64,000 bases of DNA from a virus (IMGVR_UViG_3300021295_000003:32001-96000); one strand, 5' to 3'; shown: positions 22,087 through 62,210, counted from the stretch's first letter. The notes: a model not told the origin generated them from the letters alone. Made by a program: numbers and translations.

Positions 22087-22402
22087 TGAACATTTCCTCG
22101 TATAAGTCTTCGACTTCTGGGTTGTTTTGGCTTTCTGGTTTGTCTTTGTTTAATTCTCGGTTTTCCTCATCGATTACATCTAATTCCATACAGTATAATT
22201 TAGATGTAGTCCAAGTGTCAGCTTTCCAAAAATCATCAAGACTCCAACCTAACCCTTTTATTCTATGTGCTAATAAAAAATACATCTCCAATAAACCCTG
22301 TTCAATAGCCCAAGCCATTGAGGTGTTCATTGGAGTTAATCGTATTTCTTCATCGTTATTTTCTGTTTTAGAGTTGTTTTTGTCTTTCACGAAAACTGGC
22401 AA
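22076..22402 (-). CDS. Tail assembly chaperone, second ORF (probable frameshift extension)
   Basis: Overlaps upstream chaperone in the +1 frame; LGWSLDDFWKAD resembles gpT-like segments. Confidence 0.6.
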   Translation of the reverse strand: MPVFVKDKNNSKTENNDEEIRLTPMNTSMAWAIEQGLLEMYFLLAHRIKGLGWSLDDFWKADTWTTSKLYCMELDVIDEENRELNKDKPESQNNPEVEDLYEEMFNED

Positions 22403-30723: not shown

Positions 30724-32043
30724 TTAATACACTCTCACTTTTCTGTAAAAATCTTTTCCCATAGGACGATTTGGTGATAAACTTCCCCTTACACCATACA
30801 CTCCATAAGCCAATGCGTCCATAGCGTGGTCATTAACCTTTACTGGCTCATCAAGAGTCACTCCTTCACGGTTTTTACGATATTTATAACCTTTAATCTC
30901 ACGTATTGTATTAACGCAACGTGGGTGAATATGAATACGAGTCTGCTTTGTAGTAGTGATTTTCGCCTTAACGTCCTTAATTCCTTTCTCCATTGGAAAA
31001 CCATTCTGTACAAACTCTTCAATACGGTCAGGTTCGGCAGCGTCACCGTAACCTGTGTTTAAATGCTCCGGCAGTAATTTATGCTTGAATAACATATCTT
31101 TACACTCTTGAATTAATTCACGGTTTAATAATTTCGCTTTATAAACCTCATCAAGCACATACACTTCATTATCATACCAAGCAAGTAATAAAAAACAACT
31201 TGGATTGTTAAAACCGAAGTCTGCTCCGAAACTGTAAAAATCAAAATTATCACGGACAACAACTGTATCATAGTTCGGATAAATCACATCTGTTAATTTA
31301 CCCCATTGTCCGGCACTATAACGAAGCCATAGCTCGTAATCTTCGTTTTTCAAGTTATCATAATAATCACGCTGAAATTTCGGTAATTTCAAATTCTCAC
31401 TATAATGGAAATGTGCTGATTTCCTCCTTTTCTGAATATTAGCCAAAATTTCCTCATAACTTGGATAAGGTTTGCCCTCTGCGATGGCTTCTTGTTTTTT
31501 AGTTTCAAATTCAGTAGTAGCGTCCGCAAATTCGTGATAACGTTTATAAATCCAATGCTCCTCACTTTCAGGTTGAACTACAAGTAACATTTGCGAATAT
31601 CCTCCTTCACGTTTACTTGCCTCGCCCCTACCAAGACGTAACATTAGTTCAATATAAAACTCGGGACTATTAAGTTCCTCCGCTTGTTCAATGTATATCA
31701 TATCTGCGTTGATTGAACGCACCTTCGAGAGCTCGTCTAACGCACCAAAATACAATTTACTATTGTTACTAAACGTAATAACTCCCTCTGACTTGTTTTC
31801 CTCATAAGGAATACCCAAATCATACAAAATATTACGAATTTCCTTCCAAGAAGTACGCTTCAAAGACGGTAAAGTCTTACGATAAATATAAATTGAAGCG
31901 TCAGGATACTTTAACGCATAAAAAATGACTTTATAACAAGCAAAGATAGTCTTACCTGATCCCGCACTACCCTCTATGAGTAATTCACGTGTACGGTCAT
32001 TAATCCATCTCTGTTGAGTTGGAGTCATCTCTACTGCTACCAT
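30724..32043 (-). CDS. terL: Terminase large subunit, PBSX-like (virus A)
   Basis: Walker A EGSAGSGKT, Walker B-like IYIEQAEE, nuclease GADFGFNNP, DAAEP, DHAMDALAY. Confidence 0.95.
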   Translation of the reverse strand: MVAVEMTPTQQRWINDRTRELLIEGSAGSGKTIFACYKVIFYALKYPDASIYIYRKTLPSLKRTSWKEIRNILYDLGIPYEENKSEGVITFSNNSKLYFGALDELSKVRSINADMIYIEQAEELNSPEFYIELMLRLGRGEASKREGGYSQMLLVVQPESEEHWIYKRYHEFADATTEFETKKQEAIAEGKPYPSYEEILANIQKRRKSAHFHYSENLKLPKFQRDYYDNLKNEDYELWLRYSAGQWGKLTDVIYPNYDTVVVRDNFDFYSFGADFGFNNPSCFLLLAWYDNEVYVLDEVYKAKLLNRELIQECKDMLFKHKLLPEHLNTGYGDAAEPDRIEEFVQNGFPMEKGIKDVKAKITTTKQTRIHIHPRCVNTIREIKGYKYRKNREGVTLDEPVKVNDHAMDALAYGVYGVRGSLSPNRPMGKDFYRKVRVY

Positions 32044-41287: not shown

Positions 41288-42043
41288 ATGAAAAAAATTT
41301 TACTTATTATTATATTATTGTTTATGCTGCCGATTGTGGCAGCTGGAAATAATACGGCTCCTGTTGATAATCCGACTATGTTGATTGAGGATTGTGATAC
41401 GGTTGTTGCTCTTGAAGATGGTGACTCTAATATCTCTTTTACTGATGGTTACAAGGGATATTGTGCTGAATGGGGTAAGCATTCAGCAGAGAAAGGTGAT
41501 GAGTTCTACGTGCATAATGGAGTAGATAATAACATCAAAGTGTATTTTGTTTATTATTATAATGAAACTACCAAGGACAAAATTGCTACACAGCATATGA
41601 TTTGGAAGTTCACGGATAATAAAGAGTTTAGTCGCTTTAACAAGACATTATATCATCAGATAATAGATACAAGCAAGGAAATTCATTTAAATGATAATGG
41701 ACGGATTAAATATAATTCTACACATTATTTAGTATATGATTTCAAGTTATTCAAATCAAAGTTCGTCGAATATCAAGACTACATTGGCATTAAAATCTAC
41801 TTTGAGAAAATCTTGTCCGTGAATAATACCATAATAATTAACGATACATTTGATAAAAACACTACTTCAAACTTAACTTATGAGAATAATCTAACAATTA
41901 TCCAAGTAAATCAAACTTATTCTCAAAAGCAAGATAAACACTACAACTCATCTACATTAAACAGCCACAAAACAGGGAAAAACATTATATTTTTAATTTT
42001 AACATTACTCTGTTTAATAATCAATAGGAGAAAACAATTATGA
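41288..42043 (+). CDS. Secreted / surface-anchored thioester-domain (TQXA-like) protein
   Basis: Signal peptide; GYC, TQHMIWKF and YQDYI motifs; Asn/Thr-rich stalk; HKTG + TM + RRK tail. Confidence 0.7.
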   Translation: MKKILLIIILLFMLPIVAAGNNTAPVDNPTMLIEDCDTVVALEDGDSNISFTDGYKGYCAEWGKHSAEKGDEFYVHNGVDNNIKVYFVYYYNETTKDKIATQHMIWKFTDNKEFSRFNKTLYHQIIDTSKEIHLNDNGRIKYNSTHYLVYDFKLFKSKFVEYQDYIGIKIYFEKILSVNNTIIINDTFDKNTTSNLTYENNLTIIQVNQTYSQKQDKHYNSSTLNSHKTGKNIIFLILTLLCLIINRRKQL

Positions 42044-42564
42044 CAGACTCTAATACCAAAACAATCAGATATTTAAGCTTGTTTAGTGGAATTGGAGGAT
42101 TTGAATTAGGATTACAAAATTCAAAGCACAATTTTGAGTGTGTAGGATTTTCGGAGATAGATAAATACGCGGTGAGCATATATGAAAGAAACTTTCCAAA
42201 CCACATTAACCTCGGTGACGCAACAAAAATCAAAACAGAAGAATTACCCGACTTTGACCTCTTGGTTGGCGGATTCCCGTGTCAAGCATTTTCTATCGCA
42301 GGAAAGAGAAGAGGGTTTGATGACACAAGAGGAACTCTCTTTTTTGAGATTGCACGGGTTCTCAAAGACAAAAGACCCAGATATTTTCTTCTCGAAAATG
42401 TACGGGGCTTATTATCTCACAACAAAGGCGAAACTTTCCAGACAATACTTGAAGTTCTCTCCGACCTACGGTATGATGTTCAATGGGAGGTACTTAATAG
42501 TAAAGACTTCGGCGTCCCGCAGCGAAGAGAAAGGGTGTTTATTAAAGGATATTCTCGAAGATGA
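42040..42564 (+). CDS. C5-cytosine DNA methyltransferase, catalytic polypeptide (motifs I-VIII only)
   Basis: LFSGIGG, EID, GGFPCQ, ENV, QRRERVF; stops right after motif VIII. Confidence 0.92.
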   Translation: MTDSNTKTIRYLSLFSGIGGFELGLQNSKHNFECVGFSEIDKYAVSIYERNFPNHINLGDATKIKTEELPDFDLLVGGFPCQAFSIAGKRRGFDDTRGTLFFEIARVLKDKRPRYFLLENVRGLLSHNKGETFQTILEVLSDLRYDVQWEVLNSKDFGVPQRRERVFIKGYSRR

Positions 42565-42628
42565 GGTTGATGAGAAATATTATCTCTCACAAGAGATGAT
42601 GGAGAAAATTTTGGTTGATAGAAAATGA
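42320..42628 (+). CDS. Nested +1-frame methyltransferase-associated polypeptide (M.EcoHK31I beta-like)
   Basis: GAGGG then ATG 42320; YGMMFNGRYL...CLLKDILEDEVDEKYYLS; stop overlaps next ATG. Confidence 0.65.
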   Translation: MTQEELSFLRLHGFSKTKDPDIFFSKMYGAYYLTTKAKLSRQYLKFSPTYGMMFNGRYLIVKTSASRSEEKGCLLKDILEDEVDEKYYLSQEMMEKILVDRK

Positions 42629-43499
42629 GGAAAGTAAAATGCTTAAATCCCTCTAAACATCAAGCACAGAAAGTGTATAGTGTTGATGGACTTGCGTGTA
42701 CGCTCTCCGCTAATGGGGGGGGGGTCAAGGTGGAAAAACTGGATTGTATTTGGTGGAGAATATGGATAAAAAGATTATAGAGAAGAATTTTGCGGAAATA
42801 GACAAAGGGAAATATGTAACTACTGATAAAGAAAAAGAAAACTGTTACGCCGTGACAACCGCTCAAAGAAGCCGTCCAGTATACAGAAAACAAGATAATT
42901 ATGTTCTTGAAGAAACACGGAAAGTAAAATGTCTTGGGACATATAATACTCATCAAAGTGGGAATATTTATAATCCTGAGGGTATAAGCCCGTCATTGTG
43001 TGCTACGGATTATAAAGCACCTGTTAAGATAATCGAAAAAAAAGTCGAAGAAGTTATTGGTAGCACACAGAAACACGCTGCAAGAACTGATGGAACAGAA
43101 ACCCCTACATTAACCGCTTCAATGGGACAAGGAGGAGGACACGTTCCAATGCTTAAAATACGTGAAACTACTAAAAAAGGATACAAAGAAGCAAAGCCAG
43201 GTGATGGAGTATTAGTAGAACGAGCAAGTAGAAAAATAGCAAAAGGTATGGTTCAAAAGGACTCTACTGGAACTATTCGTGCTAAAAGTAACTGGGGAGC
43301 AGTAACTGGGGATTATCGTATCCGCAGACTTACTCCACGTGAATGCGAACGTCTTCAAGGATTTCCTGATGACTGGACCAAATACGGCAAAGATGGAGAA
43401 TTGATAAGCGACACCCAAAGGTATAAATGCTGCGGAAATGCAGTTACTACAACAGTAATAACTGCAATAGTGGATAAAATGTTTGATGATGTAGAATGA
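42625..43499 (+). CDS. Methyltransferase TRD array plus motifs IX-X, interrupted by an out-of-frame G10 tract
   Basis: MRKVKC...VYSVDGLACTLSANGGG / GQGGKTGLY joins with G8 or G11; ends RRLTPRECERLQGFPDDW...QRYKCCGNAV. Confidence 0.8.
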
Positions 43500-43672
43500 A
43501 ACGTGAAGTGCGTGTATGGGGGGGCATAGGTGAAAAGAAATCAAATAAAAATACTCAATGGTATTTCCAAGACCGTATCTATGATATTAATGGAATTTCT
43601 CCCTCACTTACAAGTTGGAAATCAGATTATATGATTGCAATAAAAAAGAGGAGCTCAAAAGATGAAGATTAA
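43496..43672 (+). CDS. Free-standing methyltransferase TRD-like peptide (58 aa)
   Basis: ATGA-coupled; GGIGEKKSNKNTQWYFQDRIYDINGISPSLT parallels QSGNIYNPEGISPSLC in the upstream gene. Confidence 0.7.
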   Translation: MKREVRVWGGIGEKKSNKNTQWYFQDRIYDINGISPSLTSWKSDYMIAIKKRSSKDED

Positions 43673-60223: not shown

Positions 60224-60862
60224 GTGAAAAAAAGACTGATTGATATGGAAGAATGCTACTGGGAGCAACCATTACTCGGTAAAAATGGAAGTACTGAAAA
60301 TGGAACTCGAAAATATAGAGATGTGTATTTTAACCATAATGGACACATCACTTGTGAACAGATAGCTAAAATGTTTGATACAGATAAAAGAAACATTGAG
60401 AACCATAAATCAAATTATAACTGGGATGGCGTATTAGCTGATAAAAAAGCATATCTTCAAAGGAAACGTGATGAGAAACGTGAAGAGAATTATCAGAAAC
60501 ATATTGATAAAGATTTCAAAAATGCTGATACAGTATTAACCATTAAATATGCTCAAATTCAAATGGCAGCTATCAAAGTTGGTCTTATGAAACCAAATGG
60601 TATGATTATACCTGAAGAGTTAACTTTCAAAGAAGCATGGAAAACCATAGACAATACTGATGTTAAAACATTACAAACTGTTATTATGCGTGACCTGGAA
60701 AAAGCTGGAAACATCAATGATAAACAAGTACATAATGTACATGGTGAAATGGATTTAACTCAAACAATCAAAGATGCAGATAATACTGCAAGCATCGATG
60801 ATTTATTTGAATTATACAAAGAGGATGAGGAGGAATCCATGAATGGAAATGACACCAAATGA
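60224..60862 (+). CDS. Terminase small subunit-like (virus B)
   Basis: HTH-like CEQIAKMF...YNW, directly upstream of TerL. Confidence 0.55.
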   Translation: MKKRLIDMEECYWEQPLLGKNGSTENGTRKYRDVYFNHNGHITCEQIAKMFDTDKRNIENHKSNYNWDGVLADKKAYLQRKRDEKREENYQKHIDKDFKNADTVLTIKYAQIQMAAIKVGLMKPNGMIIPEELTFKEAWKTIDNTDVKTLQTVIMRDLEKAGNINDKQVHNVHGEMDLTQTIKDADNTASIDDLFELYKEDEEESMNGNDTK

Positions 60863-62210
60863 TTATAAAAAAGAACTCAACCTCAACTACCAATTCTATA
60901 AAACACTATTAGATAAAACAATCTACCATAACCCTTACATTGAATTAGATCCATACCCATTACAAACATTTCCAATCATTGAAGCTAACAAACCAACAAC
61001 AACCTATAATGATGAATTAATAGGTGCTGGAGGATTCGGTGGAAAAACAATACTAGGTGCAATGTTAGCAGCACAATACCTAGAACATAGTAAATACCAA
61101 TGCCTGGTAACAAGATTACACTACCAGGAACTAACTGGACCAAATAGCATATGGAGTATACTAACTGAATGGTGCAATACTACATGTGAAATAAACAGTA
61201 CGAAATTATACATCAAATCTCCAGCAGGAGCATTAATTCAATTCAAAGCATTTGACCATGAAAAAAGAAAAGAAAAAGTCAAAAGTGAATCATACACCAG
61301 GATAGTAAATGATGAGGCTTCCGAATTAAAAGAATCAATACTAAGATTCCTATTCCGAAGTTTACGTAAAGAAAAAAACAATCCACTCCCATTAAGTTTC
61401 ATAAACTTATCAAACCCTGGTGGAGACAGTACTGAATACTTAGCAGACACTTATGTTAATGGAGATAAACCATACTTCGCATTAGATTGGAGACACAACC
61501 CATACATAGACAAAGAACAATATAAAGCAAGTCTTGAAAACCTGGATTATATCGACCAACAATACCAACTACACGGTAACTGGAATTACAAACCAAAAGT
61601 TGGTGACTTACTATCACGTGCTGAAGGAGAGGCACAGCTAATAACTAACTTAACTACACCATTATACTATGAAATCATAGGCATTGACTTAGCTGGAAAA
61701 GGAAAAGACATGTTTGCTGTAGTTTGCTATGATTACTTAGCTAATGGATTGGAGTATATTAAAGATTTCAATCAAACTCAATCACATAACCCTGAATCAT
61801 TACTATTAGATTTCATTGTTAAACATAATCCCAATCCCAACCTTCCAATGACTAGTGTAATAGTTATAGAACAAGAAGGTGGTGGAAGTCCTGAATATGC
61901 TAAAAAATACTTTAAGGACATGATTAACGATTATGGTTACAACATACCTGTAATACTGAAAAAACCATCAGGAAGCAAATACCAAAGAGCAAGACCATTA
62001 ATGCACAGCATAAAATATGGGAATACTAAACTAAACCAGGAATCAGAATACATGGATGATTTCATAGATGAGGGCATACAATTATCACCTGATGGAAAAG
62101 GTAGAAGTCCAAACCTGGTAGATAGTGCAAGTTTAGCAAGGAATTATTTACATACTGATATTTTAGGAAATACTACAACAGTTACTGTTGGAGCAAGAAT
62201 CGGAGGATAA
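60843..62210 (+). CDS. terL: Terminase large subunit (virus B)
   Basis: GAGGFGGKT, IVNDEASEL, SNPGG, NPYID, GIDLA, EQEGGGS, KYQRA. Confidence 0.92.
   Translation: MEMTPNDYKKELNLNYQFYKTLLDKTIYHNPYIELDPYPLQTFPIIEANKPTTTYNDELIGAGGFGGKTILGAMLAAQYLEHSKYQCLVTRLHYQELTGPNSIWSILTEWCNTTCEINSTKLYIKSPAGALIQFKAFDHEKRKEKVKSESYTRIVNDEASELKESILRFLFRSLRKEKNNPLPLSFINLSNPGGDSTEYLADTYVNGDKPYFALDWRHNPYIDKEQYKASLENLDYIDQQYQLHGNWNYKPKVGDLLSRAEGEAQLITNLTTPLYYEIIGIDLAGKGKDMFAVVCYDYLANGLEYIKDFNQTQSHNPESLLLDFIVKHNPNPNLPMTSVIVIEQEGGGSPEYAKKYFKDMINDYGYNIPVILKKPSGSKYQRARPLMHSIKYGNTKLNQESEYMDDFIDEGIQLSPDGKGRSPNLVDSASLARNYLHTDILGNTTTVTVGARIGG

Follow-up and report, generated by a model that had tools for sequence, protein, structure and literature searches.

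Does an uninterrupted run of ten G's within a viral methyltransferase gene break that gene, or does it serve as a switch for one of the recognition modules of the enzyme? We pursued this question in a window of 64 kb, which comprises bases 32001-96000 of the 104,717-bp IMG/VR virus record IMGVR_UViG_3300021295_000003; the tract sequences are all metagenome assemblies, without read-level data. A first-pass annotation had proposed that the tract is a slippage switch. Most likely, the tract indeed works by replication slippage, as a switch through which one methylation specificity is added to the enzyme or taken away, its reversibility being inferred.

The G10 tract and the gene around it

The G10 homopolymer (42715-42724, + strand) is preceded by AAT and followed by TCAAGGTGGAAAAACTGGATTGTAT, exactly as first described. 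It codes for the Gly-Gly-Gly of a glycine-rich loop in the recognition module TRD1 and is prone to slippage. The exceptional nature claimed for it was borne out, as its length is far above chance: a first-order Markov model of the whole 104,717-bp genome (34% GC) predicts 0.011 G/C runs of at least 10 nt, and 0.058 of at least 9 nt, per genome. GGG is, furthermore, the rarest glycine codon, with a share of 10% among the glycine codons of long ORFs. Only one other G/C run of at least 7 nt was found in the 64 kb, a G7 at 43518-43524, which sits 800 nt downstream of G10 within the same locus. The complete genome holds three such runs, these two and a G9 at genome positions 22139-22147, all of them within methyltransferase loci that make up 2.2% of the genome (P ~1e-5). 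That the G10 tract is real, and not a chance feature, is confirmed.

Judged by its motifs and profile matches, the gene encodes a C5 cytosine DNA methyltransferase of a tailed virus, split over several frames and built from multiple modules. The catalytic N-terminal chain, ORF A (42040..42564, + strand, 174 aa), carries motifs I-VIII, including I (FSGIGG), IV (GFPCQAFS), VI (ENV) and VIII (QRRER), and matches PF00145 with E=4e-72 (profile positions 2-162 of 324). It stops 15 codons past motif VIII (QRRERVFIKGY), and the exact ORF A protein occurs on 15 public contigs. Nested in ORF A, in the +1 frame, lies ORF B (42182..42628, + strand, 148 codons), with GGTGA 6 nt upstream of its ATG at 42182; it ends in LKDILEDEVDEKYYLSQEMMEKILVDRK, and its TGA overlaps the ATG at 42625 (ATGA). 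From there, ORF C (42625..42780, + strand) encodes, with G10, 51 aa that consist of TRD1 (MRKVKCLNPSKHQAQKVYSVDGLACTLSANGGG) and out-of-frame residues up to the TAG at 42778-42780. ORF D (42762..43499, + strand, 245 aa from ATG 42762) contains TRD-like modules and motifs IX (RIRRLTPRECERLQGFPDDW, also given as RRLTPRECERLQGFPD) and X (GNAV), and matches PF00145 with E=5e-16 (profile positions 252-323); the ORF list gives this downstream frame, which is not that of 42625..42780, as 42744..43499 (251 aa). A free-standing, TRD-like mini-gene (43496..43672, + strand, 58 aa) follows, whose ATG overlaps the ORF D stop (ATGA), which carries the G7 in frame, and whose protein was found on 13 contigs. 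The enzyme belongs to the PF00145 family, with its motifs spread over two ORFs.

Between motifs VIII and IX, the recognition modules are arranged in tandem: TRD1, a module with GNIYNPEGISPSLCATDYKAPVKI, a module with TPTLTASMGQGGGHVPMLK and a KKGYKEA... segment. An alignment of protein relatives of the downstream chain revealed that whole modules are present or absent as cassettes. The degree of fusion varies as well: L055, L056 and L060 encode single chains of 429-524 aa, L057 encodes two chains, and L051, L054 and L079 show the same kind of split as the window, while in protein P0006 the mini-gene module, TRD1 and the rest are fused into one chain. The window enzyme is not a single polypeptide like those of the SPR/phi3T type, as ORF A stops at 42564 and frame 0 has five stops ahead of TRD1; because it is split, we do not file it as a member of that family, which it resembles in its working. 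We also observed that two TRD modules (window 42627-42647 and 42918-42938) both begin with RKVKCL and have a 13-nt string, GGAAAGTAAAATG, in common; modules lying between the two copies of this direct repeat could thereby be deleted or duplicated.

In the G8 product, TRD1 aligns to residues 237-273 of M.HhaI (QGERIYSTRGIAITLSAYGGGIFAKTGGYLV), a region that includes the glycine-rich DNA-recognition loops of M.HhaI. Because of this alignment, the tract is predicted to code for part of a recognition loop. Against relatives, pN/pS ranges from 0.24 to 0.56 in the TRD1 flanks, from 0.19 to 0.37 in ORF A and from 0.32 to 0.46 in ORF D, with 0.19-0.30 and 0.32-0.44 also given for these two ORFs; the values are uncorrected, and with synonymous sites near saturation the true ratios are lower. 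Going by these ratios, purifying selection acts on TRD1 as it does on the other parts of the enzyme. No lesion besides the repeats was found in TRD1 or ORF D of the window, and the tract alone parts the two.

About 60 related loci (L002-L087, L199) have the same +1 peptide, and in them, too, the +1 frame is open over a long stretch. In nearly all of these roughly 60 full-length loci, the open stretch of the +1 frame ahead of motif VIII measures 96-214 codons, and the nested ORFs end in the conserved L.DILE..V..KY[YF]LS. Nucleotide diversity after motif VIII is 0.51/0.38/0.28 by frame-0 codon position, and because it peaks at the third positions of the +1 frame, the wobble falls on that frame. 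The nested ORF is also present in gp12 of the cultured Methanobacterium virus Drs3, in which the G tract is absent. With a second polypeptide encoded in another frame, the locus looks like an alpha/beta arrangement of the M.EcoHK31I type, widespread in phage C5 methyltransferases, although this rests on no direct sequence comparison to M.EcoHK31I. For the A/B junction, we also weighed a programmed +1 frameshift where motif VIII ends, and dismissed it: it would lack a conserved slippery site, the codons at the junction varying between AAA GGA, GAG GGA, GTC GGA and GTT GGA, and it is also disfavoured by a frame 0 that is open to motif IX in nearly all relatives. The nested ORF fits the junction better. 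For the B-TAG-TRD1 arrangement of L051, evidence for TAG read-through or another genetic code is lacking.

The claim that this is an archaeal virus agrees with four genes that have their best or only phage-collection matches in viruses of Methanobacteriales. The large terminase, the portal and a 1483-aa tail-region protein match Caudoviricetes sp. vir249 (host: Methanobacteriales) in this way; the primase/polymerase-like protein matches Methanobacterium virus Drs3, vir080 (Methanobacteriales) and Hyperthermophilic Archaeal Virus 2, and the N-terminal half of the methyltransferase shares 73% DNA identity with Drs3. An assignment to tailed archaeal viruses related to those of Methanobacteriales is well supported by these similarities, with the host species unassigned; scans of genome contigs yielded neither a close provirus nor a host assignment. 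The pseudomurein endoisopeptidase family PF12386 had no match in the genome, and none in control genomes either, so that its absence carries no weight. Beside the clear large terminase (window 30724-32043, - strand), a second, weak Terminase_3 match (E ~1e-3) lies at 60843-62210 (+ strand), and the 104.7-kb record may contain more than one packaging module or two elements.

Tract length, reading frame and natural alleles

To follow the frame in silico, the number of G's in the window sequence was altered, and nothing else, before translation. From ATG 42625, G8 gives a chain of 290 aa and G11 one of 291 aa, both with their stop at 43499 and both reading TLSANGGG(G)QGGKTGLYLVENMDKK..., which is the fusion to the downstream frame that the first-pass annotation had expected of these two lengths. 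G9 gives 47 aa and G10 gives 51 aa, the latter ending at 42780 in the ORF list and in the translation alike, as had also been claimed. The G9 frame ends at TAA 42767-42769, 3 nt past ATG 42762, and the G10 frame at its TAG, 14 nt past the same ATG. These translations show that G8 and G11 place TRD1 in frame at the head of one chain, before the other modules (ON), and that with G9 and G10 the TRD1 ORF ends no more than 20 nt after ATG 42762 (OFF). The repeat lies inside a reading frame, ORF C, as is expected of a frame-switching SSR contingency locus.

A search with ORF D led to a 90%-identity protein cluster with four members. P0123 (290 aa, one Logan contig) is letter for letter the window ORF from ATG 42625 with G8 and reads ...TLSANGGGQGGKTGLYLVENMDKK...; P0001 (270 aa, 10 contigs from JGI, Logan and ENA) is letter for letter the window ORF from ATG 42686 with G9; P0121 (245 aa, two contigs, one of them this 104,717-bp genome) is the chain from ATG 42762 and represents the G10-type frame, a 245-aa protein being compatible with G10, G7 or G13. 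The fourth member, P0122 (215 aa), lacks the N-terminal part. Over the shared 245 aa, P0123, P0001 and P0121 are identical, so that at least three tract states exist on an otherwise identical background, the predicted ON state among them. These alleles demonstrate that slippage by a polymerase, or another process, has produced G8, G9 and G10-type tracts. OFF states account for 12 of the 13 informative contigs (G9, n=10; G10-type, n=2; G8, n=1). The contig counts of 10, 2 and 1 are possibly not independent, since one sample may have been assembled by several pipelines, and the evidence for the G8 and G9 alleles consists of the exact protein sequences of the cluster, the contigs behind them not having been inspected. 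An exact-pattern scan of viral contigs, from which near-identical records may be excluded, did not recover the tract context of the window itself; a looser pattern scan matched contigs of L051 and L054 only.

Tracts at homologous codons were found in related lineages. L084, L051 and L054 form one lineage, L079 and L080 (two samples) a third. L051 carries GGA followed by G9 and is in frame (SSGGGGQGGKTGLY), L054 with G11 and L084 with G8 are out of frame, and L079/L080 have AAT followed by G8, one G less than the G9 needed, and are out of frame, too. An in-frame G9 is present in L087, a GC-richer monospecific gene. ON and OFF states thus occur within L084/L051/L054 as they do within P0123/P0001/P0121. 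L051 and L054 are 97% identical over the aligned stretch from motif VIII to the end; their indels in the TRD array are those of the G tract, which differs by 2 nt, and of an (AG)n repeat in the neighbouring module. As a check of the switch, the first-pass annotation had proposed a tally of tract lengths in related genomes, and the lengths do vary, with G8, G9 and G10-type tracts in public assemblies and G8/G9/G11 and G8 in the sister lineages.

It had also named relatives with mixed glycine codons, together with a single in-frame length in all accurate reads, as what would speak against the switch. Such relatives exist: L057, L060, L055, L066/L068 and others encode the same glycines by mixed codons and are simply in frame, L057 coding for the identical peptide SANGGGQGGKTGLY by AAT GGT GGG GGT. 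In the tract-bearing lineages, however, this is not the case. When the lineages of the window, L051 and L079 are compared, synonymous divergence in the TRD1 flanks amounts to 0.5-0.6, and in all three the G run extends unbroken across three wobble positions. Since pure G has been kept in three lineages despite such synonymous divergence, and although GGG is the rarest glycine codon, the comparison argues for a tract that is maintained.

The proposed switch and its alternatives

The downstream chain starts at a GGTGGAG ribosome-binding motif with ATG 42762 (42752..42764, + strand). In this genome, GGAG is found upstream of 36 of the 86 long-ORF ATG starts, compared with 3.6 expected, and GGTG upstream of 13 of the 86, compared with 3.9 expected. 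ATG 42762 and its upstream GGTG are kept in both sister lineages (L051, L079), where the in-frame TRD1 ORF terminates within or beside the conserved downstream ATG. An internal start that would let the enzyme survive without TRD1 had been suggested; the start itself stands on these signals, and the survival of the enzyme remains only plausible. Since a ribosome-binding site and an ATG of its own are conserved for the downstream part, we infer that only one module is toggled.

The TRDs of the multispecific methyltransferases of Bacillus phages are mutually independent. In the OFF states, the 245-aa chain would still be made, by way of its own GGTGGAG-ATG or by termination-reinitiation, and chains A, B and TRD-IX-X may assemble as in M.EcoHK31I and M.AquI. 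Because of the independence of TRDs in the Bacillus phage enzymes, the OFF enzyme would be expected to keep the other specificities and to lose the HhaI-like specificity of TRD1 alone, its assembly, activity and specificity all being inferred. The virus population would then hold mixed methylation patterns, which could hedge between two kinds of host, one in which the TRD1 mark blocks the restriction enzymes and one in which it is a target of methylation-dependent nucleases. We put the probability that G10 is a hypermutable SSR contingency locus in TRD1 at roughly two in three. The natural G8, G9 and G10-type alleles support the slippage switch, while reversibility within a population, the OFF-state chain, the methylome change and the hedging benefit are inferred.

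That most sampled alleles are OFF also fits a loss of the module. TRD1 could be subject to mutational decay, with the slippery tract merely being the first site to shift the frame, rather than a reversible switch that is maintained. Such decay would agree with the prevalence of out-of-frame alleles in the cluster and with L054, L084, L079 and L080, which are likewise out of frame, as is module D1 at its (AG)n in both L051 and L054; TRD1 of the L051 and L079 lineages, moreover, has no ATG, GTG or TTG of its own and follows the ORF B stop in the same frame. We nevertheless consider decay unlikely, since an exact in-frame G8 allele exists, the sole lesions in TRD1 and ORF D of the window are repeats, and the TRD1 flanks show purifying selection across lineages with near-saturated synonymous change. 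An uninterrupted G run in three lineages despite the rarity of its codon, and the location of every long G run of the genome in methyltransferase genes, are not what decay would lead one to expect, either.

The length differences could also be errors of sequencing or assembly, with G8 as the true length everywhere and G9, G10 and G11 as artefacts. Homopolymers are classic miscall sites, and both G tracts of L079/L080 are exactly one G short of frame, which is a point in favour of miscalling in assemblies without reads. Yet the 13 contigs, which come from three assembly sources, show three recurrent lengths, the commonest of them (G9) being out of frame, and between L051 and L054 there is a difference of 2 nt at the tract as well as differences at (AG)n dinucleotide repeats, which are not typical error sites. 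As a control of accuracy, this genome has A/T runs of up to 9-10 nt and nevertheless keeps its long ORFs (2911, 1483 and 1159 aa) unbroken. Error therefore seems very improbable to us. We give equally little credence to recoding, that is, a ribosomal -1 slip on GGG GGG GGG G or stutter of the RNA polymerase on a fixed G10 or G9 template. A homopolymer would permit the P-site tRNA-Gly to re-pair in any frame, a -1 slip on G10 would yield the same NGGGGQGGK product as G11, and a programmed -1 frameshift is known from the capsid gene of Methanobrevibacter MSTV1-like viruses (PMC11375127). Recoding, however, does not predict the length variation that was directly observed at the DNA level, and the relatives with mixed glycine codons are in frame without it. 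A contribution of recoding cannot be excluded, but it leaves the DNA polymorphism unexplained.

Further repeats accompany the G10 tract, which we continue to regard as a probable slippage switch. The G9 elsewhere in the genome lies outside the window in an N6_N4 DNA methyltransferase gene (G000:C1:21912-22601, equal to L088:1913-2602; PF01555, E=3e-36), where it is in frame and codes for KMGGGIY. P0127, a 71-aa protein of the N6_N4 cluster, ends in KMGGGNLYVLQ, which is the reading with one extra G; in L089, the nearest viral relative of this methyltransferase (74% identity), the G tract is absent. In L051 (L051:2970-2992), L054 (L054:2970-2992), L058, L059 and L084, an (AG)n repeat separates the ATG of the catalytic ORF from a mini-TRD ORF (MRDVEVIGGIGEK...) that lies upstream. 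With its 7 units in L051, L058 and L084, the mini-TRD is fused in frame to the catalytic domain, and with 9 units in L054 and 6 in L059 it is not. The (AG)n inside module D1 is one unit apart between L051 and L054. In L057 (L057:4093), the mini-gene ATG is directly followed by G10, in L079/L080 by G9, both one G short of the frame GGG[VI]G.K.SN.NTQ.Y; the mini-gene of L060 (L060:4835) has a G7.

These repeats may together form a combinatorial switch system on a modular methyltransferase in relatives of Methanobacteriales viruses, which would comprise the first contingency loci to be described for an archaeal virus; we hold this wider reading only tentatively, with slightly less than even confidence. 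The poly-G in the TRD1 loop, the poly-G after the mini-gene ATG, and the (AG)n linkers between modules and before the catalytic ORF would each attach, detach or silence one recognition module, and a second poly-G would gate the N6/N4 methyltransferase. If so, one virus lineage could reach many methylome states.

Two other repeats were seen in related genes. An in-frame G9 in L020 (L020:1338-1346) codes for LLSH-GGG-QTFQ in the catalytic domain of another phage C5 methyltransferase and lies in the main frame and in the nested +1 ORF alike. Downstream of a related methyltransferase in L062 (L062:4226-4251), a G6...C8 inverted repeat (GGGGGGTTATCTAATAACCCCCCCC) looks like a hairpin and not like a coding tract.

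Relation to known systems

Bacterial pathogens are a textbook case of bet-hedging by phase-variable methyltransferases. That viruses have hypermutable tracts has been recognised only lately, mainly for phage genes of receptor binding. In the present case, the device appears in a virus of methanogen-type archaea and at a single recognition module of a multi-module enzyme. If confirmed, it would mean that viruses also vary the epigenetic coat they wear, as a defence against host restriction and against methylation-dependent nucleases, and that contingency loci are used by archaeal viruses, too. Virome annotation would be affected as well, as such methyltransferase genes are called broken or truncated.

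Repeat-driven phase variation is established for bacterial methyltransferases (phasevarions; Type III mod genes) (PMC13076061, PMC11868660), and in the Type I specificity gene of NgoAV a poly-G tract changes specificity without abolishing activity (PMC9577141). Like in these systems, a homopolymer in a methyltransferase or specificity gene slips and shifts the frame, with ON and OFF states among close relatives. Unlike them, the tract described here is found in an archaeal virus and in a Type II-like C5 enzyme, and lies in one of several tandem modules, so that one specificity would be toggled while the rest is inferred to persist. Regulation of host genes, as in the phasevarion sense, is not implied for the viral tract. 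Among viruses, contingency loci have been described in T2 and T4 (bioRxiv 10.1101/2025.10.21.683753); that preprint also cites poly-G tracts in receptor-binding genes of Fletchervirus and one that was noted, but not studied, in the methylase gene of Bordetella phage BPP-1. Our tract shares with these the virus-encoded homopolymer of 7-11 G, which gives frameshift diversity in the progeny and is read as bet-hedging against host defence. The known cases, in contrast, are bacteriophages, and those studied concern receptor binding or escape from defence. For the Methanobrevibacter virus MSTV1, methyltransferases in a variable region and the -1 frameshift in the capsid gene have been reported, with no mention of a repeat switch (PMC11375127). 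Our literature search found no contingency tract in archaeal viruses, nor any publication in which a single recognition module is switched in this way.

M.AquI is a naturally split C5 methyltransferase. In M.EcoHK31I, the beta chain is encoded in another frame within alpha (PMC2836561). As in these two enzymes, motifs I-VIII and IX-X of the window enzyme are located on separate ORFs, and the last residues of its conserved nested +1 ORF are the peptide found behind motif VIII in monomeric enzymes; a repeat-controlled module has not been described for M.EcoHK31I or M.AquI.

The multispecific C5 methyltransferases of the Bacillus phages SPR, phi3T, rho11s and H2 are known from the work of the Trautner laboratory. 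As in these enzymes, the TRD modules of the window enzyme stand in tandem between motifs VIII and IX, and relatives differ by whole modules. The Bacillus phage enzymes, however, are single polypeptides without known repeat switches, whereas the window enzyme is split into A, the nested B, the TRD-IX-X chain and the mini-gene, and carries slippery repeats in and between its modules.
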